NCBI GenBank assembly: GCA_002633005.1
Contig: NMRA01000082.1
Span: 783,988-847,987 of the forward strand
From: Phoronis australis
Taxonomy: Eukaryota > Animalia > Phoronida
Length of the DNA stretch: 64,000 nucleotides
Direction: 5' to 3'
Positions within the stretch are counted from its first letter, which is position 1; each line of letters opens with the position of its first letter. The translations under genes and the position numbers were made by a program. Below, one piece after another: positions 1 to 54,866 of the stretch. The notes beneath the pieces are model-generated. The model made no database searches. It saw nothing but the letters and a program-made list of their open reading frames with translations, and was not told the DNA's origin.

Positions 1-3000
1 GGTACTCTCTATGTGTCCTTCCCTCACACACGTGACCAAGTACAACTCATAGAGCGGTCATCTCATTAACTGAAGCACTAATTTGGATATTTGACTGGCA
101 TTCGGGTCGCTGCTAATTGTTATACATAAAGGTCGTCATTAGGTTAAAATTGGAGCCTACAAGATGGCAGACGATTCTGTTTGTGTGTTTTAGATTGATG
201 TAAATGAAAAAGAGGCGAAATAAAACCGGCTAATAACGTTTACGGCTCCCTAAATATCCCGAGTGAGTTTGCCATATTAGCAAACCCATGAGATATTCCC
301 TTATTTTTCTGACTGATGTCCATTTAAAAAATCCGACTGACCTTCAACTCTGATTGAGCTAAGTATGGTTACGCGCTTATTTCTTCCGATCAACATGAAT
401 GTTACACACAGCTGGTAAAAAGCGTTTTTTACTGCAAACTCAGAAACAACGTGGCACTGTGACAGATCATTTCAAAGTTTCACTTCGTGTTCTGATGAGG
501 GATTCTTCCGAAATTTCATTGGTATTTTAACAGATCTTCTTAACAGCTTTATGAACTGTAGTAGATAATTCAACCCCTTACCAGTGTTTGTAGATGTAAA
601 TGTGTAACTCCAGCATTATTGTAGATATCGTACTCCAGTTGCACATCGAATATCAATCTAAACATTCCAAAATAAAAATCGCTTGAAAACATTTATCTTC
701 AGAAAAAAATACAGTGATTATAACTGTTCAGAAATCAAGCCCTTCAAAGAGGTTATTCACTCGAAGATTCGACATTTTACTTGCCACTATTACTTGTTTC
801 ATTGTCACCTAGCGGCGAATGTGAAACTAAAGCATTCACTTGTCTCATTGGCTGGTATTCGTGTCATTTATTATAACACGACGCCATTAGGTCAAAATCT
901 ACAAGATGGCTGACGCTTTGGTTCGTCTTTGGTGGAGAGAGATAAAGAGATTTGAAAAATAACTGAGTAAGACCATTTACAGGTTTATTGTTCCCTAAAT
1001 ATTGTAAGGGATTTCATATTGTTTAGTGCAAGCACACACAACAGATATTATCCAACATTCATAAATTTGTGAAATAATAACTTAACGAATCATCAAGTAT
1101 GTTTGACATGAGTTATTGGCTATATGATCTTTGGAATCTCTTTCTTTCGNCCCCTTCCCCATCTGTGCTAACAACACATTTAGACATAAAGATGATTGCG
1201 TTTGTAGTGACTATTTGCACAAGGGAAGCGCAGGGACGCTGATGGCATTGAGAAATTATACCATTATGCTTGGCTTGAAATATAATAAAATGTCTTGCAT
1301 GATCACACCAGGTATGGCGACAGTCAAAAAGAGAATTCAAGGACCCACCCCCACATTGCGCATGACACATCGCGAAGCGGTGGCAATACAGTTTATACAT
1401 CCGGCAATACGTTCCGACGAACTGACTCCGGATGTTTATGAGGTTGAATATCGAGAGGCAAGTTTGATTTCATTGTACAGAAGAGAAAATTAAACCACAC
1501 AAGACATCTGTGTAAAAGAGGTAGTGTCGCTTGAAACGATGGGTTCGTGCACTAAATTAGTGTCTCGAACATTGAAATATCAAATGGGGATTATTATACG
1601 TTTATTTTTGCGTTTATGTGGTCCTGTCGCGCTTAGCTCGTACTGCTTTCAAGCTGTCGTGGTTTACCATTGGTATATAACAAATTCCATGTCTATATGT
1701 TAAAAGCAGTGTTCTAATTAATAAGGATATGTTATCCTTAAGCACTCACAATTTGCACATACGTTACAGGTCCAGTGGACGTACTTACGTTGGCTGCTGG
1801 CCGGGGTCATCCGTTTCAGGCCCTTGCAAAATTAAGTTACGGGTCTGTGAACGAGACATTTCTTTGTGTCCGTTTCATGAATGCCAATTATTATTTTCTG
1901 CAGGGTGGAGGATCATAAGGGGTTGGGAAGCTATAGCCGCCTACATTTTGCAGTGCTGTACCGCCCATGTCTCAGACAGTACATGTAAATATATTTGCAC
2001 TGACTTAGGAATGCTGATTGGAATAGGAAGGTACTCTCTATGTTTCCTTCCCTCACACATGTGACCAAGTACAACTCATAGAGCGGTCATCTCATTAACT
2101 GAAGCACTAATTTGGATATTTGACTGGCATTCGGGTCTCTGCTAATTGTTATACATAAAGGTCGTCATTAGGTTAAAATTGGAGCCTACAAGATGGCAGA
2201 CGATTCTGTTTGTGTGTTTTAGATTCATGTAAATGAAAAAAGAGGCGAAATAAAACCGTCTAATAGCGTTTACGGCTCCCTAAATATCCCGAGTGAGTTT
2301 GCCATATTAGCAAACCCATGAGAAATTCTGACTCATGTCCATTTAAAAAAATCCGACTGACCTTCAACACTGATTGAGCTATGGTTACGCGCTTATTTCT
2401 TCCGATCAACATGAATGTTACACACAGCTGGTAAAAAGCGTTTTTTACTGCGAACTCAGAAACAACGTGGCACTGTGACAGATCATTTCAAAGTTTCACT
2501 TCGTGTTCTGATGAGGGATTCTTCCAAAATTTCATTGGTATTTTAACAGGTCTTCTTAACAGCTTTATGAACTGTAGTCAACCCCTTACCAGTGTTTGTA
2601 AAATGTAAATGTATAACTCCAGCATTATTGTAGATATCGTACTCCAGTTGCACATCAAATATCAATCTAAACATTCCAAAATAAAAATCGCGTGAAAACT
2701 TTTATCGTCAGAAAGATACAGGGATTATAACTGTTCAGAAATCAAGCCCTTCAAAGAGGTAATTCACTCGAAGATTCGACATTTTACTTGCCACTATTGC
2801 TTGTTTCATTGTCACCTAGCGGCAAACGTGTAAACTAAAGCATTCACTTGTCTCATTGGCTGGTATTCGTGTCATTTATTATAACACGACGCCATTAGGT
2901 CAAAATCTACAAGATGGCTGACGCTTTGGTTCGTCTTTGGTGGAGAGAGATAAAGAGATTTGAAAAATAACTGAGAAAGACCATTTACAGGTTTATTGTT

Positions 3001-3157
3001 CCCTAAATATTTTAAGGGATTTTATATTGTTTAGTGCAAGCACACACAACAGATATTATCCAACATTCATAAATTTGTGAAATAATAACTTAACGAATCA
3101 TCAAGTATGTTTGACATGAGTTATTGGCTATATGATCTTTGGAATCTCTTTCTTTCG
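1..3157. repeat. Near-identical ~1.13-kb direct duplication (1-1149 vs 2030-3157); probable uncollapsed haplotype overlap
   Basis: Copies differ by scattered SNPs and small indels; copy 1 ends exactly at the single N at 1150. Confidence 0.85.
1312..1457 (+). CDS. Exon: FN3 domain, N-terminal half (..GPTPTLRMTHREAVAIQFIHP..DVYEVEYRE)
   Basis: caccag|gt acceptor; gag|GCAAGT donor (GC type), phase 0; joins exon 7708 to give the FN3-like YEVEYRE|VG motif. Confidence 0.7.
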
Positions 3158-3473
3158 AGACTTTACGTTCTCAAGCCATTTCACATTTTCCAAAGGTTGT
3201 TCTCCCCGTGATTGGATCCTGGTACCGTATCTGCGACTTCCCTTTACAGACCATTCCTAATTTATGCTAGTCTCGGCAACTTGCAAAGACGCTCGCCTTG
3301 GGGGTCATTACCGGAACGGGAAACACGTAAAGATAACCACCACGCCGACACTTCTGATTTCCTGATTTTGGCATTTGAGAACTTGGATGTTTGTCGCATA
3401 AGCTAATTCCTGTATGTACGTGTGTGTACACGTATGAATGTAGGCTTGTGTACATCAGGAAATACATACCGAT

Positions 3474-3570
3474 ACACACACCCACACAAGCACACCCGCT
3501 GACGCATACACACAAACACGCACACACACACGCACACACGCGTGCGCGTGCACACATACACACACACACA
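3474..3570. repeat. Imperfect (CA)n microsatellite
   Basis: acacacacccacacaagcacac..cacacacacaca; explains the HT/CV-rich spurious ORFs. Confidence 0.9.
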
Positions 3571-7620: not shown

Positions 7621-7707
7621 TTAAACCAACATACTTTATCGGCTTTATAGTAATGGTTTAGAAGCAATAATACATGTAAGTCATTATATAGATTCGTGAT
7701 TTTATAG

Positions 7708-7903
7708 GTTGGCCGCCAGCAACCACACCTTGTTGACAAAGGACAACTAGTTACCTTGAAGCATGAAAATACAGAGACTGTAGCCTACATTCCAGTTAAG
7801 CCGGGCAAAGTGTATGAAGTCACAGTCTTCGCTGCTTACCACTTTGGTGGTACCAAATTGCAGCGCATAGCTGGCAAAGCATCAGAAACATTGACAATAA
7901 AAG
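7708..7903 (+). CDS. Exon: FN3 domain, C-terminal half (VGRQQ..VKPGKVYEVTVFAAY..ASETLTIK)
   Basis: ttttatag acceptor, g|gtaaaa donor; PGxxYEVTVxA is the FN3 F-strand motif. Confidence 0.85.
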
Positions 7904-8502
7904 GTAAAAGTTTTCATTTAGCCTCTGACTACGAGATTTTTATACCCCCCCCCCCACGACTAGCGACACCACCTTGCACATACATGACACACACATATCT
8001 TTCCACTATCTATTGTTTCAACATATCTTAATTATTCAAAATATCGTTCACGACAACAGCGCTGTTTTAATAAGCGATGTGATTTTTGCATTTTCGACCG
8101 AACGATAAACAATGAAATTCGTTTACTGAGTTCAACGTTTTTGAAGAGAGGCACATATGGCAATCGCTCCTATATTGGACTTGACAAAAATGTTTGACAA
8201 TGCAGACAACACCACAACTGTGAATGCAACAATTCCGACGAGCTTAAGTAAACTGCCCAAGACCGCATCAATTTCAGCCAAGGTGGTTTATCTTTTTTAA
8301 AAGCAGCAAAATGATACATGTACGTTAACAAGGGTAACCCCGGTTTGAAATTCCATAATTTAATTGCCTGTAACGGCAATTGTCTTTCGAGCTTCTGTGA
8401 TTCGCAAGTAGCAATAGATTAAGTATTGTTTTATTGGCTTGAGTTAGGAATTAACTTAGCAAGAACAATTCGTGTCTGTCTATTCTGATTTCTTGTTTTG
8501 AG

Positions 8503-8655
8503 GTGGAAAGGGTTGCACTCCGGGATTTTTTGGAATGGGTTGTAGTTACAAATGTCACTGCAAAGGTGATGAGCCGTGCTCTGAAGTCAACGGAAAATGC
8601 CCTGGCGAGTGTGATACGTACTACACCATAGGCAATTACGGCGCATGTACATCTC
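8503..8655 (+). CDS. Exon: EGF-like repeat (CTPGFFGMGCSYKCHC..)
   Basis: CxxGxxGxxCxxxCxC pattern; c|gtaagt donor; acceptor is an unusual ttttgag, so the start is approximate. Confidence 0.85.
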
Positions 8656-9233
8656 GTAAGTATGTCGTTTCCATGACTAATGCCACGTCTTTAGCGAGCA
8701 GCTGGTTTATATCGTTATAGGTCTTTGACCAGTGCTATAAATCCGCCTTTTATAAATAAATAAGTTAGGATTAAGACCAATTTTGTAGGAGGTCAAAGTC
8801 AAGTAATAAAAGTATTCAAAATGGTTATAATACTCAGGTTAATTAACATACAATTCCTAGTTTTAAAAACTAAACGTTTCTTTTTGATACTTTCATTGCT
8901 CAGCAAGTTGATCTCACCTCGCACGTCATTTATGCGCATGGTATCCTTATGACGTCTAAACAGTGCCACAGAAAAAGCACTACCTGTTAACAACTCAGCT
9001 AGCCAATCAAAAACGACGGTGTATTTTTCCCCTGAGGAAAATTAATTGATACTTGCGTGTCTCCTTCACCCTAGCGGACATTTAGGGACCCAGCTAATTT
9101 TTGCAGGGTCTTTGCGTCTACGAATGACATGCTAGGGCATTGTTGACTACTGTGCTTTCTAACCTTGCATCGTGGTCATGTTTAGCCGTGGGTGTCGCTG
9201 CATTCTCCCTATCCTGTATCTGCGTTATTTCAG

Positions 9234-9374
9234 ACAAAGGCTGCCCTGTCGGATGGTGGGGAGAAAAGTGTCGGAACAAGTGTAATTGTGAAAATGACGC
9301 CAATTGCGACAATACAGAATTCGGCGATTGTGCCAAATGCAAAAAGCGGTTTATTGGGATTGGTTGTAGTACAA
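9234..9374 (+). CDS. Cassette 1 exon a: EGF-like (CPVGWWGEKCRNKCNCEN..CKKRFIGIGCST)
   Basis: tttcag acceptor, a|gtgagt donor, 141 nt, phase 1-1; paralogue of 22809-22949. Confidence 0.92.
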
Positions 9375-9720
9375 GTGAGTAATCGAAAATTCCGAGAAAA
9401 CGTGCTGATTTGAAGATACCCAAACACGGTATGTACAACATGTGCTCAGAGTCAACACAAGCTCATTGTGTTCCATAAAATCATTCTTTGTAATATAAGT
9501 TTAGAATTTTCCATGCGTGCATGTTTAAATACACCAGAAGGTACTTTGTATGTGACGCTGAGTCAGCTTAATTAAACCGTGTCCAATTCTCTTAAAAATT
9601 CGGTGATATGCTTGTGTAAGGAGTAGGCGGGCCCTGTTTGTAATTTAAATATATGGTATTCCATGGCCAAGGCGTTATCCCCCGTAATCATGAGCCTGGG
9701 TGGATTTCGGAGAATTATCA

Positions 9721-9790
9721 TCCGAGTGGCGCAGTAGTTAGGTTGGCGACTCAAAACCATTGGGAATCGGGTTCAAAACAGGCCACGGGT
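9721..9790 (+). mobile_element. tRNA-derived SINE head / tRNA-like remnant
   Basis: A-box-like TGGCGCAGTAGTT and B-box-like GGTTCAAAAC at tRNA-like spacing; no intact cloverleaf. Confidence 0.4.
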
Positions 9791-10660
9791 TTCCGCCAAC
9801 ATGTTATTTAACGCGTGTTGAATAACTAAATGTAGAATTCAAAACGTTCAGTCTTCAAAGTTTATTCAAAATCGTACGGTCATACGGTCGTACAGTCTTA
9901 CAAAAAGTACATTGGGTTTCCTAAAAGAAAATAAGAAACAAATGTAAGCGAAACAAACAAATAAATAATTTCCAAAACAAACCAACAAGTATCACTGTGA
10001 ATAATAGCACCAAAACTAAAAGACGAAATAACTAGTTTCTAACTGCAAACTCAAAATGAATTAGAGGTCAAACCGATGTCAAATGACCGCGTGGTCAAGT
10101 TCAGTGGAGAGAAACGCCAATATGCAAACATACAAAGCCTCGAAAACAAATAGAAAATAGCTCTGATATACTAAACATACTAAGCAAGTTTGAAGCAAAC
10201 AACAAGCTATCAACCACGAATGGAATGAGGTTGAAAATAATAACTTTCAAGGAGTAAGCAAAAATACGTGGTTCATGTATTCAACAAACAACAAGAAGTG
10301 ACAGGCAGCGTAACAAGCGGCGAACGTGAACACTATACAAAGCACTGACTCGCCGCGCCCTCTATAGATATCTCTGAACTAAAACGCATTTGACATCCTA
10401 CACTGAAGGTATTATTTAACTGCTGTATTGGCCAAGTTAGGCTGAAAATGTGGTATAACACATTTTAATTTTACTGGCAAGTGCTTGAATGTTATCTTAC
10501 ATGTAGTTTCGGAGTGAGTTTTGAAAGAACCTTGCATTCACTCATTAGTTATCAATTTGACAATTCCTACAAACATAACAGTAGCTTGCTCCACCTTCTC
10601 CGGATGATTGGTTGAGGAAGATTTATGCAAATTATGGGCAAACATTTGATTGTTTTACAG

Positions 10661-10801
10661 AGACTCCGTGCAAAGAGCCGAAGGTTTATGGACCAGATTG
10701 CAATACACCATGCAACTGTTTAAACGATGCACCGTGCGACGACTATACCGGGAAATGTGATCGGTGTCCTCCTGGATTCAGCGGAGAAAATTGTTCAATA
10801 A
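10661..10801 (+). CDS. Cassette 1 exon b: EGF-like (CKEPKVYGPDCNTPCNCLN..GFSGENCSI)
   Basis: ttttacag acceptor, a|gtaagc donor, 141 nt; paralogue of 23810-23950. Confidence 0.93.
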
Positions 10802-11499
10802 GTAAGCAATATAATGATACATGCATGGCAGGTAGACAAATATCATGGTGTCATACAGCCTTGCAGTCATCTCCTCGACGATATCGACTGTTCGAGGCTG
10901 TTCCGTGGCAGGGATTACATGTATGTACACACTGAAGAACAACATCAGGAAAGCAAGAGAAACAACAGGTGGTTGCAGTATCCACTGTTTCCCTATGGTA
11001 TTCTAGTTGGCCGTCAGAGGCCAGTAGTGTAGGAGGTCAAGGTCAGGTAATAAAAGTATTCAAACTGATTGCCCCTCAGTTCAGTAATATTTCCCGTAAT
11101 TTTCCTCAAATATTAACGTACATGTACAACGTTTGGCGACGATCAAATCCAAACCCTAAATGTCCTGAGCTGCAGGCTTGAAACATTATGCATACCTAAT
11201 TTTCAGTTGTCTAGTATGTAACTTCTCCCGTTTTTACCATCATTATAGAAAACAGCGATGAATTATGAACACTTTTAACTCTGCATTACGTGCATGACCA
11301 TGGGTGTTATGTCCTCAAAACCCGTCGTACATTTCCAGGAAGTTAGCCAATTGGAAGAATCCTTGTCATTTCAACACCCGTTGTTTCCGCTCTAAAATCT
11401 GTCCGAATTGTCAAAGGATTTCGTGCCAACAACATCCTTCGCAAGTCCGAGGCGAATATACTCCAAATTCGAATAAGTCAGAGCAATTTCATGAAAAGG

Positions 11500-11720
11500 T
11501 AAAACTACCCTTGACCTATTTTCGATCATCGTCAATGGAGATCTCCCGCAAGATCAGAGAAGCAATTTAAATTAAACACCAAATTAACACAATCAACCGT
11601 GACCAAGGGCTACTACTTCTCCCTATTTAGGACAATGTGATACTTCCGGTTCAACATCTGCGGGAAGTTCACATTTGTGGACAAGGGCCTGATGTACAGG
11701 CTCTAAACACTATGCATACC
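11500..11720 (+). mobile_element. Penelope-like element, 3' GIY-YIG remnant
   Basis: RKIREAI*IKHQINTINRDQG matches the RKIxEAIxI..NRDxG terminus. Confidence 0.6.
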
Positions 11721-11829
11721 TATTTTTTTGTCTTCTAGTAAGTAACATGACGACAAAAATCACCGTTAACCCTGCGGTGACTTTACCTATCGACACTGGA
11801 AACGGTGGATACGTAGATTCGGCTTATTG

Positions 11830-12200
11830 TATGTCGACGAAGCTGGCTGCCCAGACTCAAAGCAGCGTAGACATTATCGTTGGTTTTGGTCAGTTACATT
11901 TTGGAGCCAAAAAGAATGCTCTCTGTCTTACCGAGTTGTAGTGATAACCGATTTTTCGTTTAATCTGATGCGTAGTTTGAGAATCTCACTTGCTCTACGA
12001 TTTTCGATGTCAATGGGATCCTCAGCAGAGTAAAGTAATGCTGAATCATCAGGGTGGAGAAAACAATTTACACTCGACTGCTTTGTGCATGGCGTTAAAA
12101 TCAACATGGAAAAGCAAAGGTCGCAGAAGTGACGCCTGAGGAACACCACAGGTGGTAGTCCTGGCATCGGAAAGAGTTTTAGCAAGTTAAGCACGTTGTT
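11830..12200 (-). mobile_element. CR1/L2-like LINE RT remnant
   Basis: HPDDSALLYSAEDPIDIEN (degenerate YADD region), then frameshifted LGKTESILFGSK. Confidence 0.55.
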
Positions 12201-12609
12201 TGCGACAATGAAAATAACTTCAAAGCCAGTCCAGAGCAGTGTTCTAGAGATTGGGTGCTGTAAGCTTTTGGATTATAGTTTGATTGTCAACAGTATCGAA
12301 TGCATTTTACAAATCGAGTAGGAGCATTCCGGTTTAATTTAGTTTTTTTGGAAGCTTCCGCCGGATGTTGAACCCAAGTTTCGTGAAGATGAGGAGCACA
12401 ACACATTTGATGCCGACCAAGACGACACGACTGACCTTCACCAGGACACGAGTACGAACGGACGACTGACACGTGTGAGGAGAAATCGTACTAGATAGAT
12501 GGAGGAGATTTAGTGACATTATTAGATATGTGCGCTTAGTTTTTAGTGTTACCGCAATTTTCTTAACGTTGCTTTACCCAGTGGACACTACCAAGTGTTT
12601 ACATTTATC

Positions 12610-13015
12610 TCAGTTCTATCATTCTTAGTGTATTTACCTGTTTCTGAGTTATTTTCTTTTAGAAGGATATTGATGCAGTATTTACCGATTTACTATAGTA
12701 TTCTAGTTAACCGGTAGAGGCCAGTAGTGTAGGTATCAGGGGTCAACTAATAAAAATATTGAAATGCTTGCCACTTAGTTCTATAATATTTACAGTATTT
12801 GAACCCTAAAANTCAGTTCTATCATTCTTAGTGTATTTACCTGTTTCTGAGTTATTTTCTTTTTAGAAGGATATTGATGCAGTATTTACCGATTTACTAT
12901 AGTATTCTAGTTGACCGGTAGAGGCCAGTAGTGTAGGTATCAGGGGTCAACTAATAAAAATATTGAAATGCTTGCCACTTAGTTCTATAATATTTACCGT
13001 ATTTGAACCCTAAAA
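12610..13015. repeat. ~200-bp tandem duplication across single N at 12812; probable contig-overlap artefact
   Basis: 12610-12811 is nearly identical to 12813-13015. Confidence 0.85.
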
Positions 13016-13029
13016 GTTGAGATACATTA

Positions 13030-13485
13030 ATGGCTGACGACGACAGCGATGGCGTTGAATTAATTATGGTGATAATCGTGATGATGGTGACTAATGATGG
13101 GGTGGTGGCAACGGTAACGGTATTGCTTGTGATAGTAGGGGTGACTGTGGAGCTAACGACGATGACGGTAATGTTGAGAACGACGGTGATGATGGTGGTG
13201 GTGTTGAAGGTGGTGATACTGCTGGTGTTAGTTATGGTGGATGATCTGGTGGTGATGGAGACGTCGAAGATGACGATGATGATTTGGATCAGGAAGGTAA
13301 CTAAGCTGACCACTGTTACGACTACTTGAGAACGATATTGCTGACACTACGAAGGCAGTTATGATAACATTGATGATGGAGACCTTAATTTCGAATACAA
13401 TGAACGTTAACGTGATGGTGGTGTTGTGGTTGCGGTGATGTTGGTGCTGGTGACGGCGGTGATGCTGCTGGTGATGGTGCGAGTA
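13030..13485. repeat. (GAT/GGT)-rich low-complexity tract
   Basis: gatgatggtg-type triplets; source of V/M-rich and T/I-rich spurious ORFs. Confidence 0.85.
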
Positions 13486-13611
13486 CAGGGCACTTCATAG
13501 TCTCACTCAACTTCCAATGAATATTGATGTCGATTTTGATAAAGTTGCTTACATCCTGTGCACATTTCAGTGTGGTCAATCTTCACAGCGTACCCGGGTT
13601 TTTTATTGTAG

Positions 13612-13689
13612 AAACCAGGTGCATGGAAACATTCGAGTTTTACCCAACATCCCCGGCATATCCATACAAAACATTTTACTGTGAGGACG
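13612..13689 (+). CDS. Cassette 1 exon c: 2-Cys linker (TRCMETFEFYPTSPAYPYKTFYCED)
   Basis: ttgtag acceptor, g|gtaagt donor, 78 nt; same-length paralogue at 24707-24784. Confidence 0.88.
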
Positions 13690-14086
13690 GTAAGTGGAGT
13701 TTTTTGTTTTTTTGTTTGAAGCGGTTCCTTTGCAAAATATTCCGTTCTACCCTTTTGGAATACGCACACAAACAACATGAAATCCGTGTACATGTACATC
13801 GTAATCACTGTGTCAGGATGCGTTCTGTAGACTATAAGTGAGATGGTACTTTGTACTGTATTTCGTCGCTGATGGAATCGTAAATACTGGATTCAATTCC
13901 ACGTCCAACCTCGCCAACCAGTCACTCGAGAAGAGGTTTTGCTAAGGCAGGATAGTATTCAAGCACCCAAGGAGACTCGGTAAACGCGAGTTTCTTTTGC
14001 AAAGTCTCGGAAGGAACGATCTGCCGGCCCGTCATGAAATGCCTTGCAATCGTCAAAGAAAATGTCTGCTGACGTATTCGTTTCTC

Positions 14087-14241
14087 CAGTGGCGGATTTA
14101 AAGGGGGCCAATGGGACATGCTCCCCTTAAAATTCTGCTAGATGCCATTTGCCAGTACGGGGGTGCGAATGTCTGACTGACAAAATCCTGGTGAACAACT
14201 CTACCGTGCGCCCCTAACTCAAAATCCTGGATCTGACCCTG
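14087..14241. mobile_element. Small non-autonomous DNA element (CAGTGGCGGAT..GGATCTGACCCTG termini)
   Basis: Degenerate terminal inverted repeat; TTCTC on both flanks. Confidence 0.45.
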
Positions 14242-15168
14242 TTCTCTGTGTTCAAAAGTTATCGACGTGACTTTCCTGGTCCTTGGGCGGTCAGTATAGT
14301 TAAAGCAATGTTGCGTGACGCGAGCTTGGTATTGGTACAGCTGACTGGAATCAAGAATTTAGCAATGCGGTGTGACGGTGAGCAGCCGTATACGTCATTT
14401 GTGTCTGCGAAGAAATGCAGTGCAGGTTTCAAAAACATGGACACCGTTAAAATATGATAGAGGTTTAAATACACAAAATTTGGACAACGTATGAGTATCT
14501 ATTTCTTCTAGGCACGAACTTGCTTCTAACCTGAAGGATCAACCATTTTAGTGACCGTTATTTTGCCATGATGGCCTGTGAACCTTCGGGTCATGCTGGA
14601 ACATACGCCCTGCTGTGTAATTTTACGACCATGGTCTCGCAAAAACTCTACTTTCGAAAGGCTAAAGAAGCAAAATCTGTGTATTAAGATTGCGTGTTTT
14701 TTATCCAAAGTTAACTACCGCCTTCACAAACCAAACGGATGATCTGTGTACAAATAGAAGTTGAAGGTACGGCCGCCTTATCTACCCATCTTGATGAGGG
14801 TTCAGGATATGTTCAAATAAAGCACTTTTTAACTGCGTACAGTGGTAAAAAGTTCAGGTACTGATCAGCTAACTTAAGATGAAATGTTAGACCAGTAGGA
14901 AAATACGTTAGGATCAATGCACCATGTCAGCGTTTGTGTTATTCGATCGCGAGAAATTGGGTCAAAATTACATAAGATGTGTCAAACGCACCATTGATGA
15001 AAAGAAAGTTGTAGATTTCAGGATTGCAACTTATAAATCTATCTGGATCAAGCAGACCCTGAACACAGATTGGTTCTGGTCTCATAGATCTTCGAAATTT
15101 CCTCTAATGCCCTGACTGCGGATGAGTGACGCCCCGTAAACTTAACTTGTTCATTTACAACATTGCAG

Positions 15169-15285
15169 CTCCTACAGTGGAGGTCTCCTATAACCTACGA
15201 GGCCTCAGCCAAAATGTCATCCACGAATTGAGAAAATTTCTCGGAGTCGTTGAATCTCAAATCTCTTCATTCACAACTGGTCCAG
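15169..15285 (+). CDS. SEA-like domain 1, half A (PTVEVSYNL..LRKFLGVVESQISSF)
   Basis: ttgcag acceptor, cag|gtattg donor, 117 nt, phase 1-1. Confidence 0.85.
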
Positions 15286-15708
15286 GTATTGTACACTTGC
15301 TACCCCAGGTACTAAAAATTTCCATTTACAAGCCCAATATTCTGTGTTAATTTGATCCTACACGTTTGAGGAAAATTGCACTAGTCGTCCCGTGTTCCAA
15401 CGCTCTTACTTTCCTACATTTCTCTTATTAGTCAGAGTGGACGGTTTGCTCCTTGACACACTCTGCTTAATTGTGAGCAAAGCTGTGGGGTTGTTTGAGA
15501 ACCTCGGAGGAACGAAGAATTCTTCCCTAACGTCCGTTAATTTCCTTATCAGCGTTAAGCCTGGACCAAGGTACAGGCTTTCAATAGCTATATCATACGG
15601 GTTGGGTATTACATGTGGACTGGGCATCCGGTTCATGTATGTAAAATGTTAATAGCTATCAGGAACTTCGTAATTGGCGTGTAACTCTTTTGAACTACCA
15701 CATTGCAG

Positions 15709-15903
15709 GCAAGGAACAACGTTTCACGCTAGTATTAAAACCTCCCGAAAAAGATTCGGGAAAGTTAACATCAAGTATCTTTGCCAAATTAAAGGATTTG
15801 ATTGAAAACGGAAATACTACATTTGAGCACTCGCCTGGAGACGAAGTTAAGGCAAAGCCGGGAGAAATGCTTTTAAAACCAGCCCTCGAAGAAATGGACA
15901 AAG
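15709..15903 (+). CDS. SEA-like domain 1, half B (FTLVLKPP..LKDLIENG..FEHSPG..KPALEEMDK)
   Basis: ttgcag acceptor, aag|gttgct donor, 195 nt; paralogue of 28218-28415. Confidence 0.87.
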
Positions 15904-16648
15904 GTTGCTAACGGTTTTCAGATTGCTCAAATGCTGGTCTCAGTCAGAATTGTTACCAAATTTAAATAATCAGTATAATTTGGCAGTGGCCCTTCGTTTA
16001 CACGTGTAATTCACTGTTTATTTCGCTTTGTTTATGTTCATTTCACTCATTGTCAGATGATGTAGCATGAAGTCATGAAATATAGCTACGATTTTTATTT
16101 TATTTGTTTATTATTTTACTCGGTGTTTTACTTCGTACCTGCACACCAGAACAAAGGGGATTATTCCGAAATTACGAACGTACCAGTATCAAGCTTCCTA
16201 ACAAAAAGTCTAGTCGTGTCTTTAACGAAATCTTTAAATATTTTGAAAATAATTATAACATTTAGCAACGCTTTCTGTAAAGATTTTCGGATGGGTGCCC
16301 TAATATATAAGACTGGAAACCCTTGTGTTTTGAACCGTCCAAATTTCGGACGCCAACGTGTTTAGGCTCAGTGCATTTTACGACCCAGTGCCTTTTCAAG
16401 ACTCTACCAAGTGATTCAGCTGGACCCGGTGGCTGTATGAGGGGGATTTATAACATGCCATGCCCCTTAGCTTTATGGATAGCTTGGAACTGGTAACACG
16501 TTTATTCACTGCAGCACCAAGATAAGTCTCACAAAAAATTAATTCTCGCCTCAGCCTATCTATTCTGTGTTCGACTGCCTGATGCAACTGATTCTTGTCA
16601 CAGCTTGTCAGTCAGTCACATTTTAATAGGTTTGCCATTGCCCCGCAG

Positions 16649-16795
16649 CAAAAATGATCAGAATACTTGCAAAGATCGACAAGCAGACGCTTACAGAGGA
16701 CGAAGTTACAGCTGCAGTGCATGACTTCTTTGAGCGTATAAAGCCGACATTTAGCCAAGATAGGACGAGATACAAAAACCCCTTCATATCACCAA
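16649..16795 (+). CDS. SEA-like domain 2, half A (MIRILAKID..TAAVHDFF..PTFSQDRTRYKNPFISP)
   Basis: ccgcag acceptor, a|gtaagt donor, 147 nt; not in the ORF track; paralogue of 28982-29128. Confidence 0.88.
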
Positions 16796-17415
16796 GTAAG
16801 TGAGTGACCATCCTGCAACCTAACGCGAGCTGACACTGTCAACACACTGACGTAGCCCAACTTCGAATATGTAGGTGGAGTTTGCGTTTCAACTTGTCAC
16901 ATACACTTCACTTTGTTCTGAACCCCGTTCTACGCTTTGTTGTTTTGATCTGCGTAGGAGTGCTGTATTCCCGGAATATTTCGGAATCAGTCGAGTAATT
17001 TCGCGAATATATTGAGATCTTGCTTTACATCCATGAGTGATCCACGCATCGCTGTTGGCTTACAGCTCAGTTTCGGCAGTAATTCGAACTGAACGCGCTA
17101 GCTTCGGACCTATTCAAAAGATTTATGAAATGGTCAGGGACCAAGCTGCCCCTCAGTTCAGATAATGTGTTTAAATATGTAATAGCTTCATACCTTTTAT
17201 GTTATGTCAGACATTAGTTTGATGAAAGAATATGAGCACAAGCTCAGATCAGGTGATGCAAGAGAACCAGATTCCAGCAATCTAAAATGGCATATTTTTA
17301 GACAATGTAACCTAGCTAATTCCTTTCAAGCACGCTGGAGAACTGTTTTGAAAAGGCGACCGTGTAATTGCTAAGACAGAAGACTCATTTCTTCCAACTA
17401 ATTTCTCGCCAACAG

Positions 17416-17610
17416 AGGGTTATTTAGTTGTTGACCTGTTACCACCGGTAACAAAAGTAACCACATTCAGTAGCACCATCTTGCGGCGACTACAGAAAAG
17501 TTTCAACACAGACACTGGCCTCAAGGATAGAAAATCAGAGACAATCTGTACCATACTAGGTGGAACGGTAACGTATGACCTGGGACCTGAGGTGATCCCT
17601 GATGGTAACA
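17416..17610 (+). CDS. SEA-like domain 2, half B (GYLVVDLLPP..STILRRLQ..GGTVTYDLGP)
   Basis: caacag acceptor, a|gtaagt donor (alternative in-frame donor at 17604); paralogue of 30150-30350. Confidence 0.85.
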
Positions 17611-18126
17611 GTAAGTTACTCCGTTACCGTAAGGCGTGCTTACTTCAACTGTTTAAAAAACGTTTGTTTTACTTTTCTACAAAAGCGATATGTGATGCAG
17701 CCGAGAAGTTGTAGGCAGAAATTGTTTTCGCTTAGTCTCTGAATTGATGCAAACGAAGTGGAATCTTGTTTGTTCGAAAAAGTTAGGGTGTTGTCATAAT
17801 GCAATCAGCGCCCATTTGCTGTCAGGGCTATTCGTGCGACTGTGTTCGCCTAGTACCCCTCCAGTTCTACCTTTCTTTTGGAATGTCGTCTGATTGTTAA
17901 ACCCATTAAACGTAAAATACATTGTCTGGTTTACATGTACCTAGCCGCAACAAAATGTTCTTTGAGGAGTTATGTATTTGTTGAGTACGATGAAAACTAC
18001 TTCTTTCATAAGACATGTATACACATAGCAAGTTTTGGAGCGAAGATAGAAATGAGAATTGGTGTGCATGGTGTTGAATTAATCGTTTTTATTATTAGTA
18101 ATTGAGATGATCTTTTCACCCAATAG

Positions 18127-18279
18127 TTCCCAATGTAAAGGTGTACTTCTTCGTAAAGAGTAAGAAAGACTTCTCTGTTCAGACAAAGGCTTACGAGTAT
18201 ATCCACAACACCTTGACGGGTGTAATGGGCGTGTCCAAAGAGAGAATCGTTAATCCAAAAGCGACTATCGTCGGAAAAC
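18127..18279 (+). CDS. SEA-like domain 3, half A (VKVYFFV..YIHNTLTGVMGVSKERIVN)
   Basis: caatag acceptor, c|gtacgc donor, 153 nt; paralogue of 31893-32033. Confidence 0.85.
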
Positions 18280-19298: not shown

Positions 19299-19342
19299 TT
19301 ACCTTGATTGAATTCGTCCTTCTAAAGCCGACTACTTCGTCT
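19299..19342 (+). CDS. SEA-like domain 3, half B, truncated by an assembly N (LTLIEFVLLKPTTSS..)
   Basis: ttttttacag acceptor; matches paralogue 32817 (VLVTFSLLKPTELS); similarity stops at N 19343. Confidence 0.75.
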
Positions 19343-20127
19343 NTTCCAAAACAATTCTCTGAACAAGGTCGCTGGTTCCAAACCAATTCTGTGAATCAAT
19401 CTGCTGGACTCCAGCAATGAACCCAAGTCATTACCAATTATGGTGCAGGACAATCAAGAGTTGTGTAATTCCGATAGACAAATAACAGATTATTGTTGTT
19501 GTCGGAAATGCCTCATCCCAAAGTTGACAGGTTTTCAAAGACTTTGAGTTACACAACTTGCAAAACAAGGCACAATTGTTATTATAAACATCCCACAACT
19601 GGTAACAGACATGTGGTGAATCACTTCCCATGAACTCCTAGGAGGTTATAAATTTTGGTAAACAACCAATATGTTTGATTAATTATACACTAGTCACTAA
19701 AATTGCATAACATTGCTTTTAATTAGACTAATTATCTACAGCATCAAAAAATGTCACCACCACGTACCTTATAAAGAAAAGTCGAAGTTAAGGAAAAACT
19801 GGGGTTTTGTTGATACCTGTAAACTACATCAAAAATGTTCTGATATTAGTATGGATGTTCTGCTCTGCCGATAAATTTATGTTTCAAGAGGGCCCAGTAT
19901 GAATTATTCCAGGGAATTGAATTTAAAAGCGAGATATAAAATTGAACAAGAAATAAGAAGAAAATTTGCCAACAAAGCACTTTGCTAATTGACCTACAGT
20001 TTGAGCGCTCGTTGGTCTGAAGAAACATCGGGGCTAGCATGAAGAACTGTTAAACTGAAGATTAGATTGAAAGTTGGGGCTTAAAGTTAGGTTGTGATGT
20101 TCTTTTTGTCTCAATTGCTTGTTTCAG

Positions 20128-38981: not shown

Positions 38982-39074
38982 AAACAAAATGCGGATGGTA
39001 TGGTCCTGGATGCGGCAACACGTGTGACTGTGATCCCGGACAAACCTGCAACCAACTTGGACAGTGTGAACCGA
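38982..39074 (+). CDS. Exon: short EGF-like repeat (KCGWYGPGCGNTCDC..CNQLGQCEP)
   Basis: ttccag acceptor, a|gtaaga donor, 93 nt. Confidence 0.87.
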
Positions 39075-39111: not shown

Positions 39112-40573
39112 AGGCGAAGACAACCTTTTTCCATGTCATTTTGAGCTAAAATAAGGTTGGTTGGTTATCCTAGACATATTTTTCACTTAATTACAGCTTT
39201 TCGTAATTTTATTAATTATTCGTCCGCTTTTCCGGAAGTGACGTTTTAGGAGGCAAGCGCATCCCGCCAATTTCTTTTCACATTGTCTGACTGTGAGAGC
39301 TGCCGAGTCAGTCATTGTTCTACCTCGGTTGTGTTAAGTTCCGTCGTCGTTCGCTTTCATTTACTAGTCAGTCAACATGCCACACTGTTGCTGCGTACCT
39401 GGATGTAGTAATTATCGGCTCACGCGCGCTTTGGGAGTGCCTTTGCATCGCTTTCCGATGGATGACACACTTCGCCGTACTTGGCTCGTTCGTGTGAAGA
39501 ACTCAGCGTTACCCGTCCACGCAACGTACAAAGCAGTGGAGAATTACCGTGTGTGTGGCAAGCACTTTCTGCCGTCCGATTACGAAAGGGATTTGTACGC
39601 TGAACTGATGAAGGTCCCCGCGAAACAACGCTTGAAGAAGGATGCCATTCCGTCTGTGTTNNNNNNNNNNNNNNNNNNNNNNNNNNNNNNNNNNNNNNNN
39701 NNNNNNNNNNNNNNNNNNNNNNNNNNNNNNNNNNNNNNNNNNNNNNNNNNNNNNNNNNNNNNNNNNNNNNNNNNNNNNNNNNNNNNNNNNNNNNNNNNNN
39801 NNNNNNNNNNNNNNNNNNNNNNNNNNNNNNNNNNNNNNNNNNNNNNNNNNNNNNNNNNNNNNNNNNNNNNNNNNNNNNNNNNNNNNNNNNNNNNNNNNNN
39901 NNNNNNNNNNNNNNNNNNNNNNNNNNNNNNNNNNNNNNNNNNNNNNNNNNNNNNNNNNNNNNNNNNNNNNNNNNNNNNNNNNNNNNNNNNNNNNNNNNNN
40001 NNNNNNNNNNNNNNNNNNNNNNNNNNNNNNNNNNNNNNNNNNNNNNNNNNNNNNNNNNNNNNNNNNNNNNNNNNNNNNNNNNNNNNNNNNNNNNNNNNNN
40101 NNNNNNNNNNNNNNNNNNNNNNNNNNNNNNNNNNNNNNNNNNNNNNNNNNNNNNNNNNNNNNNNNNNNNNNNNNNNNNNNNNNNNNNNNNNNNNNNNNNN
40201 NNNNNNNNNNNNNNNNNNNNNNNNNNNNACTCCAGCCATTTTCAGCTTACAACACACTAAACAATCCCTAAATCCAACGCAGTTGAGTTCTCTACTAACC
40301 TATCTTGCCGCAGAATACTCGCCGATGGAAAGTGGTGGCGACAATTGGTGAAAAACAGCACAAAACAAAAGTAGAATAGAACAGATTCGCACTGTAAGCT
40401 CAACGCAAAACCAAGTGGCGGGAAGCGCTTGCCTCCTAAAACGTCACTTCCGGAAAAGCGGACGAGTAATTAATAAAACTACGAAAAGCTGTAATTAAGT
40501 GAAAAATATGTCTAGGATAACCAACCAACCTTATTTTAGCTCAAAATGACATGGGAAAAGGTTGCCTTCGCCT
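39112..40573 (+). mobile_element. Kolobok-type DNA transposon with 158-bp TIRs, TTAA TSD and THAP ORF; interior partly an assembly gap
   Basis: TTAA 39108-39111 and 40574-40577; AGGCGAAG..CTTCGCCT termini; TIRs 39112-39269 / 40416-40573 nearly identical. Confidence 0.9.
39377..39660 (+). CDS. THAP zinc-finger domain (transposase N-terminus), runs into gap 39661-40228
   Basis: MPHCCCVPGC..LHRFP..W..VCGKHF..LKKDAIPSVF: C2CH, invariant P/W/F and AVP-like motif. Confidence 0.9.
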
Positions 40574-41455
40574 TTAAGAAGTCAAGTCAATATTCATTTG
40601 ACGTCGCAGACTATTGTTTTAATTAGTCACATAAATTTTGCTTTTGCGAAGGTCTAATGATCGCTTTCGATGTAGGCCTGCCTGATTGGCCAATGTTTTG
40701 TGAGTCCTAGTCGCCCACGTGGTGACGAATGTGACGAGCTTGCGACGCCGAAGTCCACGAGTGGTTACACTAGCTTATCCATAGCTGTCCAGAGGTGTCG
40801 CTATATGTTACGACAGCAGGTTCTTTCCCCGTCGGAATCGAATAAGCAAAGACATGGCACAAGTTTGAACTGAAATTCGCATTTCTGTCGACATGATACT
40901 CTGGCGCTGGGTACGGTGATACATGTGTACGTCACACTCGTGTCCATGAATCTAAGAAACTTCCCGTTAAAATCGCTTTAATCCTTCTCAAGTGCTCAGT
41001 TTCACCAAACATCCAAGTATCGGAAATCAGCGACAACGCTGTCGAACATTTCTGGATTCATAAGTCCCCTTCTTTACTTGCAAAATATCTCTTCGTCACA
41101 CTACTTTGAGCGAATCTTTGAAATGTTTGATAAGTAGAGGAATTTACTTGTCTATTTTTCATGTATTTTTAACTTTTGAATTATAAAATGTACCTCTAGG
41201 CACCCTTTGGTTGCGATCAAGCCGACGGCGTTCACGTGCTTGCTTCAGTAACCATCTCCGTACTCGTATTTTTCTGTCACCCGGGGTGATTAATTAGCGA
41301 GCTGAAAAGGGCATGAGATACAAACTTTTCTAAACGTGACCATTTTTACGACAGTAAGCAGTCTTAAACGAATCTTTTTTAGCCAAAAAGCGTCACATCA
41401 CGGCTTTTAGAAATTAACGTTGTTTTCTAGCAACGAGTTCTGTTTTCTTTTGTAG

Positions 41456-41686
41456 AAATAACATGCCCCAACAAAACTTTCGGCGAACAATGCAAATACC
41501 AATGCGATTGCGGCGACCCAACGACTGTATGTCCGCCTGAAATACTGAGTTGTGAATCGAACTGCACGTCGGCAATAAAGAAGCCTTGCAAAGTCGTGTG
41601 CGCCGCTGGACGTTACGGCGAGGACTGTTCAGAGTGGTGCAACTGTAGCATGACAATTGACTGTGTCGACGGACATTGTAAAACAG
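41456..41686 (+). CDS. Exon: two EGF-like repeats (CPNKTFGEQCKYQCDC..CAAGRYGEDCSEWCNC..)
   Basis: ttttgtag acceptor, cag|gtgaat donor, 231 nt open Cys-patterned frame; not in the ORF track. Confidence 0.88.
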
Positions 41687-43095: not shown

Positions 43096-44349
43096 ACAAT
43101 ATATGCGAAAATCCGAAGAAATATGGTAAAAACTGCGAATTAGACTGTCAGTGCGCCGAAGGTGACACCTGTAGTCGCGCTGAAGGTTTATGCAAAACTT
43201 GTGAGCCACTAAGATACGGAGAGAAGTGCGAACACGAATGCGGCTGTCTTAACTCCAGTCTATGCACTACATCTAGCGGTAGCTGCCAGGGAACCTGCTT
43301 AAAAGGCCGATGGGGACTCAACTGTGAGAACGAGTGTGTCTGCGAGGATTGTAATTCCATTACGGGGAAGTGCAACAGCATATGTCCAAGAGGACGCTTT
43401 GGTGTACGGTGCAGTAACGAGTGTTATTGCAAAGACAACAACCCGTGTACGCTTTCCACAGGTTGCCATGGATGTTCTGTTGGCCACAAGGGATACTATT
43501 GCAATCAAGTGTGCCTCTGTGGGGATTTGCGCACTTGTTCACAGTACGACAGATGTCCACGATGCGTGATTGGTTGGTATGGTATTACGTGTGAACACGA
43601 CTGTCAGGGCTGTGTGTTCAATGACTGCAATAGGTTCACTGGAGCATGTATGCGTGGCTGCAAGCCTGAATGGTGGGGGGCAGGCTGTAAAAACAAGTGC
43701 GCATGTCGACTTCCGGGCACGTGCAATCCAATCGACGGGCACTGCACAAGCGGTTGCGTCGAGGGTAGGACAGGACCAGCATGCAGCAACCTATGTCAGT
43801 GTGAAAAGAACGAGTATTGTGTTGATAATACGTGTGACTTCCGGTGCCCTAAGTATAACTTCGGACACGACTGTAGGAATATCAGCCACTGTTCACCAGG
43901 TGATACATACGACTTACACACCGGACGTTGTTCATCAGGTATCTGTGAAGATGGTTACTTTGGGATCGCGTGCAGTTTTAGGTGCCATTGCAAGGTAAAC
44001 CGTTGTAAGCCAACGGGAGAGTGCTTACAAGACGGTTGTGCTGAGGGTTGGTATGGGCCATCGTGTAGCCATCGGTGTAACTGCATCGACCTGACTAAGT
44101 GTGACTCTGGCACTGGCGCTTGTGAGAAGTGTCCGGTTGGCTGGTACGGCTTCGATTGTAGCAAACCATGCTTCTGTCGAAAAGGCGTGGCCTGTAACCG
44201 TCACACGGGATTTTGCCCGAGCGGTTGCCCCCCCTTCCGCTATGGCGTGGCATGTGACAGGTTATGCGATTGCTACGACGGTGACATATGTGAACGCTTC
44301 TCTGGTACCTGTTGTAAGCCGTCAGAATCGAGCGACGTATGTTTCAGAG
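43096..44349 (+). CDS. Large exon: ~10 tandem EGF/laminin-EGF-like repeats
   Basis: gtttcag acceptor; in frame with ORF 43509; donor ag|gttagt at 44349 (an earlier gtaagc donor would create TAA with the next exon); 1254 nt. Confidence 0.9.
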
Positions 44350-47172: not shown

Positions 47173-48603
47173 AACCGACGTGTAATAACACTTTTGGGCC
47201 TAAGTGTGAGAAGCAGTCTAACTGTCAGGGTAACTTCAACCGTTTGAGTGGGGAATGCAGCACTTGCACGACTGGTTACTACGGGTTTGCGTGTGAGAAC
47301 AAGTGCCACTGTAAAGGTAATACTACGTGTTCGGGCGACGGAAATCGCTGCGCTTCCGGATGCGATGTTGGCTGGTTTGGCTTTTACTGTGAAAAACCGT
47401 GTCACTGCTATAAGAAGGCGCCTTGTCAAAAAGGCAAATGTAATATGGGGTGTGAGGCTGGATGGTGGGGCTATTCATGCGATCGACCATGTAACTGTGA
47501 ATCACCTACTTGCAGTCAATACACGGGTTATTGCGATGGTGAATGTATACCAGGTAAATACGGATACAGTTGTGAACAATCGTGTTTCTGCCCAGATGTC
47601 GGGCGATGCATGCGCAAAACAGGTAATTGCGCCGGCGGTGTTTGCCCTGCCAACAGGTTCGGTCATGGTTGTCAAAATCAATGTCACTGTCTGGCTGGAA
47701 GTGAATGCATAAAAGGTGTCTGCAAGAACGGTTGCGATAAAGGCTGGAGTGGTCCGTACTGTCAGAGCAAATGTAATTGTCTCAACGGCATGTGCAACAG
47801 CGATAAGTGTGAGAAATGTCTGCCCGGAACATTCGGGGCTCGATGCGAAAAGATATGTCACTGCGCGGGCAAGTGCAACGAAAAAACCAACGAATGCGAA
47901 GAGTGCCCTCCTGGCAGGTGGGGACATGACTGTCAACAAGAGTGTCATTGCAATTTGGCTACTTCTTGTGACAGGCTGAGCGGCAAATGCCCAAGCGACT
48001 GCCAGTACGGGTTCTACGGCTATGCGTGTAACCAGAAGTGCCGCTGCATGAACTGGGGCAAATGCGACCAATTTACTGGTGAATGCTTGAATGGAGTCTG
48101 TGAACTTGGTTATTACGGTCTTGGTTGCCAGAGTAAGTGTGCTTGCGGACGAGCGTGCGACCAGATAACTGGTCAGTGCAACGATGTCTGCCTCTTCACA
48201 CGATATGGTGACACCTGCAAGGAGGAGAGCAATTGCGCCGGTCCTTTTGACCCCCTCACCGGTAACTGCACCACCGTGTGCCGCCCCGGATGGTACGGAT
48301 ACAACTGCGCACAAAAGTGCAACTGCGATGAAGAGACTGTCGGGTACTGTCATCCTGTCACAGGGGAGTGCAGTAACGGCTGTCCACCAACGTATTACGG
48401 TCACAACTGCAAGAGCCGATGTTACTGTGTAGACAATAATGGCCGTTGTCCACGAGATACCGGACAGTGCACGAATTGTACAGCTGGATGGTTTGGGCCT
48501 CGCTGCGACAAACGTTGCCATTGCCAAAAACGCGAGTCCTGTCCAGGAAGAACATGTCCCGGTGCCTGTGAGCAAGGGTGGATGGGACAAGACTGTTCTG
48601 AAC
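47173..48603 (+). CDS. Large exon: ~11 tandem EGF/laminin-EGF-like repeats
   Basis: gtttcag acceptor, c|gtaagt donor, 1431 nt; CxxGxxGxxCxxxCxC repeats in ORF 47157. Confidence 0.93.
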
Positions 48604-49723: not shown

Positions 49724-49864
49724 CAACCCCTTGCTCGCAACCCAACAGGTATGGAAAAGAATGCACAATGGTCTGTCACTGTCTGGAAAACAAACCGTGC
49801 CATCGCTTTACAGGAAAATGCAATAAGTGTAAGCCGAGATGGAAAGGAGACACATGTTCTCATT
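49724..49864 (+). CDS. Exon: EGF-like (CSQPNRYGKECTMVCHC..)
   Basis: ttttcag acceptor, t|gtaagt donor, 141 nt. Confidence 0.9.
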
Positions 49865-51448: not shown

Positions 51449-51592
51449 TTGAGGATTGTGACAAACCAAACGTCTACGGCGAAAAATGCGAATCAGAGTG
51501 CCGGTGCCTTTCCCCGGATCATTGTGACAATGTCACGGGAAGCTGTGGCGGTATTTGTCCACCGCGGCGGCAAGGAGACAAGTGTGACCTGA
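51449..51592 (+). CDS. Exon: EGF-like (CDKPNVYGEKCESECRC..)
   Basis: ttctcag acceptor, a|gtaagt donor, 144 nt. Confidence 0.9.
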   Translation: MRIVTNQTSTAKNANQSAGAFPRIIVTMSREAVAVFVHRGGKETSVT

Positions 51593-52409: not shown

Positions 52410-52556
52410 CAACGGGTTGTACCCTGCCAGGAACCTTCGGCGAGAAATGCGAGCACAAATGCCACTGCAAGGAGCCCACGTGCGATGATGAAACCGGAAG
52501 CTGTAAGGATCATGGCGGTTGTGCCGAATACTTCTCAGGCGACAACTGCTCTACGT
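52410..52556 (+). CDS. Exon: EGF-like (CTLPGTFGEKCEHKCHC..FSGDNCST)
   Basis: gttccag acceptor, t|gtgcgt donor, 147 nt. Confidence 0.87.
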
Positions 52557-54115
52557 GTGCGTAAACTTTGGTGACTTTTAGTAACGGATGTCAGCCTCCT
52601 CTGAGGTGAAAGTTTTACCTGTAACATATTCACTGTTTGTGATTCCATTCAATTAAATCTTTTAAAATGGCCATGGCCAACGAAGATATATGGCACAGAA
52701 CCCATGGTTGTAATGTTGGTATTTAAAAAATATATCTTACTTACGCTCCTTTGGCATTAAATAAACAAAACTTATCTCCCTGTGACTGCTTCGTTATCAA
52801 ACACGTCGTACAAACGGGATGGTATAGGTGCAACACTTGATACGCGCAATAGTTTTGTCACTTTCGTTGTTGGAGAATTCAAAAGGAGAAGAGCATCGAT
52901 TCAGTTGACGGCGTTCAGGGAAACCTACACGTATTTCCCCAAAACCATTCGACACATTGTCTTCTGGTGACGTAGCAAATTTAACTCCGTTTTGAAAAGT
53001 AAAAGTAGAATATTGACTACGATTCATTTTGGATATTTTACAAATTGAAATTTAATATTTTTTTACATTAAGCTTATATAGGTGACCCGGCGATTACATG
53101 TAGTAGTTTAAAGTTGGTGTACGGAATGATAGGAGTGTGTTATTCATCTGTTCGGGATAATATAATGTCGACGCGACTACTGGCAACGATGCATGTATAC
53201 CAAATTCAGGAGAATGTAATAGAGAGTAAAGGACACGTGAAAAAGCGAAATTTTCTTCCTGCTAAGCCTTGTTCTCTATGTGGACAACCAAGTGCTGATA
53301 ATTGTGACTTAGGTATTAATGATATGTCCACCCGTCTACGCTGACAGCATTACACGCAATATACCTGTACCGAGACTAGTGTTGCCAGTGAGGTGTTGTT
53401 TTCTTATATTTCAATGGACACATTTGTAGTCACGTCTTTGTGGTGTCAGCCCCTGAATAAAATACGAGGCATGTGTTGCGCATGTGTTCTCGCGTGGTGG
53501 GGAGCTGCGTTCATTATTAGAAAATTCGACTCAAGGTAAAACCCAGCCATTGAGTATAATGTTATACTTTGTAAAATTGCATGTTTGTTTACGTTTAATT
53601 AATCGTTATTTATCGACGAGTAGTCAAATATAGGTTCAGACTTTAGTTGTAACATTGGAATGATTGACCCAGAGCCTTGCCAAAACAGCTTACGTCCCAT
53701 TGCATTCTACACCACACCATGCCTGCTTATGGAAACGCCAGAAAGGAAAGAGCGAATTGCAGTGGTGGGAATGACATAATGATAACCTTTCTGCAATGTA
53801 ACTGGTAACTTTAAAAATATAATGTTGATGGCCCAGGATTACTCTGACGTCCAATTACAAGGGAAAGTTTATTTCCTCTACACAGCTAGAGTTCAAAATG
53901 GTGTCCGAAACAAATGGACGCGTGTATCCTAGTGCATCAAGCCAGAGTATGACGTATTTGTGATTATACTATTTGGCTGTTAAAATGCAAATAAATCAAC
54001 CTGGAAACGTGAAGGAAACGGGTAGCATTGGCCGTATTCGGGACGACACCGTATGCGTAGCATTGCGTGTTAAACGAACATCTTCAGTAATGTGTGTAAA
54101 AATGTTTTGTTTCAG

Positions 54116-54163
54116 TTAAAGTTCCCGAGTCAGTCGAGTCGGACATTGGACTTAATGGTCAAA
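54116..54163 (+). CDS. Small juxtamembrane exon (KVPESVESDIGLNGQ)
   Basis: ttttgtttcag acceptor, a|gtaagt donor, 48 nt, phase 1-1. Confidence 0.65.
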
Positions 54164-54513
54164 GTAAGTAGATTAACTTCACATCATCTTGAGTGTTAAC
54201 GACTTTTTCAAATTGATCACGCAGTAGCCTATTTATTGTAAAAAGAAATCATTTTATAGTCGCAACTAAAACGCTTCTCGAAGGTGAAAATGTCATTTTC
54301 AAACCTGGATGAAGCAAATTTCAGGTGGAACGTGTGATTTACAAACAATAATAAAGAAGCCTGCGTCCTATATGATTTATGTGACTGCTGATAGCGACGA
54401 CAAATGACCACGCAACCTTTTGCGATATATGCCATGCACTACAAGCGAGGCACTTGGTCTCACTAGGTCTCTCGTGGTCTCGAGTCCACCCAAGAAACAT
54501 TTGATTGTTACAG

Positions 54514-54866
54514 GCCTAGGTCTCAAATCTGAGGATGCGAAAAAGGAAAACGTAATTACGATAACTGTAGGCGGCGTCTGCGCCCTAGTCGTTATTTGCT
54601 GCATCGCTCTTGCCGTCTTTGTCTTTGTGGCGAAAACTCACAAAAGTCGGTTGAATCTAGAATTGGAAGACGATGATGATGAAATCGAACCAGAAGTTAA
54701 GTACATCGATAAACTGAAGAGGCCGCTGCAGAGCTTACATTCTTCTATGACAGGTTCAGACGTGGAAAACACCAGCTTGAGTAGCGTCGAGGAAACGACC
54801 GATACACATAGAGAGACATCTACTGAGAGCGCTTCAAAAGAATCCGATAAAGAAGAAGAATCATAA
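54514..54866 (+). CDS. Terminal coding exon: TM helix (VITITVGGVCALVVICCIALAVFVFVA) and ~77-aa acidic Ser/Thr-rich tail
   Basis: ttacag acceptor; hydrophobic stretch followed by basic KTHKSR; stop TAA. Confidence 0.9.

Follow-up and report, generated by a model that had tools for sequence, protein, structure and literature searches.

A transcribed Phoronis australis gene for a giant EGF-repeat protein carrying two arrays of putative SEA-like units

SEA domains share a ferredoxin fold and are poorly conserved in sequence (PMC6586460, available text), and they have been described in several arrangements that bear on the gene reported here. The available text of PMC2150763 presents MUP-4 as a cuticle-attachment receptor with 28 EGF-like repeats and 2 SEA modules, and that of PMC10829539 gives MUC16 (CA125) 19 tandem SEA repeats. 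SEA-like or MAD domains appear as single, juxtamembrane modules, often with cleavage sites, in the accessible parts of PMC6586460 and PMC11527881; MAD12 unfolds under force in simulations (PMC11212938, in part), and the SEA autoproteolysis motif G/S[VI]VV is treated together with a breaking-point idea in the portion of PMC8011033 at hand. Here we describe a gene in a 64,000-nucleotide stretch of P. australis contig NMRA01000082.1 (hereafter the window), which encodes ten repeated units, D1-D10, that are probably SEA-like and are set among EGF-like repeats.

On architecture, and not on sequence, we regard MUP-4 as the closest precedent. As far as the available text describes them, MUP-4 and MUA-3 of Caenorhabditis elegans are likewise large type I proteins whose EGF-like repeats are interrupted by SEA modules; they differ from the present protein in having two SEA modules and a vWA domain, in their Ca-binding EGFs and in possessing a filaggrin-like tail. 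Pfam returned no vWA match among the 32 exons scanned, all of which lie within the window. MUC16, again from partial text, is comparable in its tandem SEA domains within a giant membrane protein, but its units are joined by Pro/Ser/Thr linkers, whereas those described here stand head to tail, are mutually divergent and lie among EGFs. EGF with SEA and tandem SEA each have a precedent, and the present arrangement of both, with ten membrane-distal units within EGF arrays, was not found in the literature searched. The initial annotation, which did not recognise the domain combination, therefore holds for this arrangement and not for EGF arrays with SEA modules as such, for which MUP-4 is a precedent in the text available.

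A spliced gene of 38 exons

The window consists of animal DNA with introns and repeats and a GC content of about 40%. Its whole + strand was read, with exon borders set by script, and the resulting model has 38 exons (1312-54866, +). An AG acceptor precedes each of the 38 exons; the 37 donors are GT in 35 cases and GC in one (at 1457), with one lost at the N at 19343, and every junction is in phase 1 except the split inside the FN3-like unit. The translation (568 + 2181 amino acids, aa) has no internal stops, and the product comes to about 2,800 aa once the ~52 aa missing from D3 are added. Its order is FN3-like, three EGF, linker, D1-D5, two EGF, linker, D6-D10, 35 short EGF units, a short stalk, one transmembrane (TM) helix and an acidic tail of 79 aa (22 Asp/Glu, 21 Ser/Thr, one Tyr). 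As a control against chance, open phase-1 AG..GT candidates between 15000 and 38100 numbered 17 on the + strand and 2 on the - strand, a comparison biased by a donor pattern derived from donors already seen. The features are as follows.

1312..1457 (+): first exon in the window, first half of the FN3-like unit; phase-1 acceptor, GC donor
7708..7903 (+): second half of the FN3-like unit; weak Pfam match, weak PDB row, sense RNA in its bin
8503-8655, 9234-9374, 10661-10801 (+): three 8-Cys EGF-like exons, from sequence
13612..13689 (+): linker exon 1, 25 aa, two Cys; 60% identity to linker 2
15169-15285/15709-15903 (+): D1, two exons
16649-16795/17416-17610 (+): D2, two exons
18127-18279/19299-(19342, break) (+): D3, two exons, the second cut off
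20128-20265/20425-20625 (+): D4, two exons
21293-21439/22157-22324 (+): D5, two exons
22809-22949, 23810-23950 (+): two EGF-like exons; 61-72% identity to EGF 2 and 3
24707-24784 (+): linker 2, from sequence
27403-27540/28218-28415 (+): D6, two exons
28982-29128/30150-30350 (+): D7, two exons
31893-32033/32817-33017 (+): D8, two exons
35122-35268/35425-35628 (+): D9, two exons
36612-36758/37849-38013 (+): D10, two exons
38982-39074, 41456-41686, 43096-44349, 47173-48603 (+): EGF-like array, first exons; sequence, and reads to 47173
49724-49864, 51449-51592, 52410-52556 (+): EGF-like array, remaining exons, from sequence
54116-54163 (+): stalk exon, from sequence
54514-54866 (+): last exon with TM helix, 79-aa tail and stop, from sequence

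The exon at 1312 is internal, with a phase-1 acceptor and no hydrophobic leader, so that the start and a predicted signal peptide would lie outside the window. The motif pattern of 1312..1457 and 7708..7903 is one that we take to be FN3-like; the second half, a query of half a domain, gave Fn3_Dep-1_4th in Pfam at E 0.088, short of the cut-off, and a monobody among weak PDB rows (E 0.95). EGF_laminin matched exon 10661-10801 (E 2e-4), and Pfam gave no match for the EGF-like exons 8503-8655 and 9234-9374. Splice phases suggest that the C-terminal array is joined to the TM exon.

Three raw RNA runs bearing the same species label (X5, X6 and X7) were compared with 31 of the 37 junctions, namely all except 1457->7708 and the last five, which run up to the TM exon. 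Between 27385 and 47380 all 13 predicted junctions occur in reads, with GT..AG ends on the sense strand, X5 and X6 each contributing 4-21 reads per junction. They include all nine internal junctions of D6-D10, the step from D10 into the EGF array, 44349->47173, and a jump over a THAP-domain element and an N gap, and they follow the array as far as 47173; X7 had no depth in the exon-only bins of this region. Exon-bearing bins of 7650-27600 had sense coverage in X5 and X6 and not in X7, and at least 2 of the 18 junctions there were among those listed, a listing dominated by DNA contigs; the D4 junction was seen in 8 reads. Overall, at least 15 of 37 junctions were seen directly. The gene is confirmed: a single spliced transcript runs through the region from the repeat block to the EGF array, and its expression is restricted to two of the three runs. 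The initial annotation had proposed one spliced gene of ~2,800 aa, and this is supported by the stop-free chain of 38 exons and the full set of junctions from D6 to the EGF array, the RNA evidence being complete there in X5 and X6, absent in X7 and partial over 7650-27600.

The RNA reads listed for junction 22949-23812 (6+2) all disagree with the window at three of the four junction letters, and the read version resembles the paralogous EGF junction of block 1, as an allele or a further block copy. Two X5 reads join 35628 to an alternative acceptor at about 36482, about 130 nucleotides upstream of the first exon of D10.

The ten units and their predicted fold

The ten units are 103-116 aa long, nearly Cys-free, encoded by two exons each and arranged in two runs of five, much as first described (~105-115 aa). 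Each has its counterpart in the other block (D1~D6, D2~D7, D3~D8, D4~D9, D5~D10; local z 17-60), with 34-62% identity per exon between paired units and 60-72% between the flanking EGFs and linker, a pairing which indicates that the block was duplicated once. A hidden Markov model built with each pair left out, from the 8 others, gave each of the 10 units a score higher than that of the best of 200 shuffles, by a small margin in the case of D3 because it is truncated; the ten units thus form one homologous family. Between blocks the proportion of nonsynonymous differences (pN) is 0.35 and that of synonymous differences (pS) 0.60, as uncorrected proportions, which argues that the units are constrained as protein.

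The aligned hydrophobic pattern gives, in the first half of the unit, an alternating strand, an amphipathic helix and a short strand ending the first exon and, in the second, a further alternating strand followed by a conserved proline, then a helix and a pair of short strands; a simple periodicity score detects the first and third strands and both helices, and not the other elements. In divergent SEA domains, which are ferredoxin-like, the order is β-α-β-β-α-β with an extra hairpin, and the aligned pattern fits it. AlphaFold, run on single exons and hence on half-domains, placed a helix at 16-28 in the first half and, in the second, a helix at 18-30 followed by strands at 35-38 and 41-44 (pLDDT 64-68). 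Length, element order and extracellular setting match SEA-like domains, and predicted element order and size resemble the SEA-like/MAD domains of PCDH15, PKHD1L1, Notch and dystroglycan. From pattern and models together, the units are probably SEA/ferredoxin-like. The fold named in the initial annotation fits the hydrophobic pattern and the helices and hairpin of the half models, and fold searches with the halves returned no match.

A cleavage motif of the form GS[VI][VI][VI] or G[ST][VIL][VIL] does not occur in the 2,749-aa model, from which ~52 aa of D3 are missing; autoproteolytic SEA domains of the MUC1 type differ in possessing one. All unit searches used half-domain queries, two of them leaving out proteins of more than 2,000 aa, and no relative was returned from Pfam, PDB sequences, a word-indexed protein set, 1.84 billion representatives or metagenome contigs, in agreement with the earlier view that the inserts have no database match. 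At the level of sequence, these null results show distance from well-sampled families, not absence.

Assembly faults and neighbouring elements

19343..19760 (no strand): misassembled stretch cutting off the second exon of D3; DNA contig and RNA reads
39377-40580 (intronic, around a 568-N gap): THAP-domain element, Pfam E 2e-16
58277..58460 (+): isolated copy of the second exon of D2/D7, frameshifted, 3.4 kb beyond the stop

A DNA contig carries 219 different letters in place of 19343-19760, and 20 RNA reads pass 19342 in frame without a stop over the ten codons shown, as judged by eye; the truncation of D3 is therefore an assembly fault. Each of the three RNA runs has reads of the THAP element from either strand, with many variants, and the element is thus likely a multicopy transposon. 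The copy at 58277-58460 (tblastn E 2e-5; blastn 72% over 74 nucleotides) retains its AG acceptor. Its presence indicates that unit exons were copied again nearby and hints at a downstream paralogue or remnant.

Duplications of 94-99% identity (1-1149 with 2030-3170; 12652-12811 with 12856-13015) adjoin single Ns at 1150 and 12812 and are likely contig overlaps or haplotype joins rather than true repeats. GAT/GGT-rich microsatellite tracts occur in the introns after EGF3 and EGF5 (13020-13500; 24000-24470), which suggests that intron sequence was copied along in the block duplication; a 60-nucleotide motif recurs in the intron after EGF3 (10974-11033, 12674-12733). The intron end at 30122-30149, just before the second exon of D7, has an in-frame likeness to the first-exon end of D7/D2 (NPF.P-type motif), which may be a relic of sliding of the intron or of a local duplication. 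Open frames at 56569-57183 (+), 61183-61518 (-) and 32122-32685 resemble, by eye, protein ends or fragments of what are presumably retroelements.

Proposed role and alternatives

The C-terminal array holds 35 units, mostly 6-Cys and ~31 aa long (210 Cys in 1,146 aa; seven exons), so the initial count of ~25 was too low; the whole protein has 40. SREC/SCARF1, MEGF6/10/11, CED-1 and Draper are alike in their single TM helix (here linked through splice phases) and long EGF-like array, but in the present protein non-Cys repeats amounting to about 1,100 aa lie within the array, and the EGF units are mostly 6-Cys and 31 aa long. SCARF1 is the only PDB match of the array (E 3e-6), and identity to mollusc MEGF6-like and PTP-linked proteins is only 28-32%, with no orthology shown; two of the four protein matches are named MEGF6-like. 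CED-1, Draper and MEGF10 have an N-terminal EMI domain. The 79-aa tail contains no NPxY, immunoreceptor tyrosine-based activation motif (ITAM) or YxxL, in contrast to that of Draper, which carries NPxY and ITAM/YxxL tyrosines (PMC6219719, available text). The lack of NPxY and ITAM argues that the protein does not belong with CED-1, Draper and MEGF10.

We tentatively favour, at somewhat less than an even chance, a mosaic receptor specific to this lineage that serves adhesion or tethering, with little tyrosine signalling and with SEA-like arrays that are uncleaved and lie far out from the membrane. Such a protein would be a single-pass type I surface tether, in which a long disulfide-bonded EGF stalk holds two five-unit arrays far from the membrane, and the distal units would carry load and attach to matrix or to another cell. 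The rod may reach roughly 100 nm, as estimated from usual domain sizes. The architecture likely originated through shuffling of phase-1 exons, together with a single tandem duplication of a block of EGF, EGF, linker and five units.

Several observations weigh against a tether of this kind. The half models assign no strands at β1-β3 and found no match in fold searches; none of 19 half-domain exons (38-67 aa, weak queries) matched a SEA family in Pfam at E up to 1, and no PDB-sequence match ties the half-domain queries to SEA. The LGVxxxRI-type motif that had been ascribed to the units is present in eight of ten and missing from D2 and D7. The SEA-like switches described in the available text of PMC6586460 are juxtamembrane, whereas about 1,170 aa separate the ten units here from the TM helix. 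Among solved structures, the nearest relative of the EGF array is a scavenger receptor, and 10 of the 17 variants listed within the units, from reads of other individuals than the assembly, change a residue, which also fits a fast-evolving recognition protein.

The main rival, possible if on balance unlikely, holds the protein to be an SREC/MEGF-like receptor for scavenging or pattern recognition, with the repeat arrays as a variable ligand-binding head for microbes or debris. The matches of the EGF array to SCARF1 and mollusc MEGF6-like proteins, the frequency of residue-changing variants in the units (four of the six listed in the second exon of D7) and expression limited to some samples all speak for it; however, the tail has one Tyr and neither ITAM nor NPxY, and the variants are a listed subset from other individuals, with no genome-wide baseline. 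It is rather unlikely that the gene stands as modelled with units of a different or new α/β fold. In favour of this, no search gave a sequence or fold link to SEA; against it, these searches were weak and confined to half-domains, and the units resemble SEA-like domains in length (103-116 aa), in the order of their elements and in being extracellular. A protein of gamete recognition or of the gamete coat is improbable; sample-restricted expression and frequent residue changes would suit one, and a sea urchin sperm membrane protein with EGF repeats is mentioned in the available text of PMC2150763, but the RNA runs carry no tissue labels and nothing is specific to gonad. That the model fuses two or more genes, or follows a chimeric assembly, is hardly credible despite assembly breaks at 1150, 12812, 19343 and 39661-40228 and 22 of 37 junctions not directly seen and none spanned by a long read, given that reads lead from D10 into the EGF array and span the gap, one DNA contig covers 16940-25847, and coverage is similar on both sides and absent from the same run.

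An automated annotation would probably label the protein MEGF-like and leave about 1,100 residues unnamed. Its ten divergent, RNA-supported copies offer a ready seed alignment for a domain family absent from the Pfam copy searched. If their fold is SEA-like, the protein permits a test of such domains in tandem, membrane-distal and without a cleavage motif. The interest is tempered by the fact that mosaic receptors confined to single lineages are common among invertebrates. A bolder and doubtful extension of the tether reading is that the units are an undescribed SEA-like family, multiplied in this lineage by exon shuffling into tandem arrays, uncleaved and distal to the membrane, to serve as serial force-absorbing or ligand-sampling modules on a ~100-nm EGF rod; if true, this would give a titin-like role to a fold hitherto known mainly from single juxtamembrane switches.
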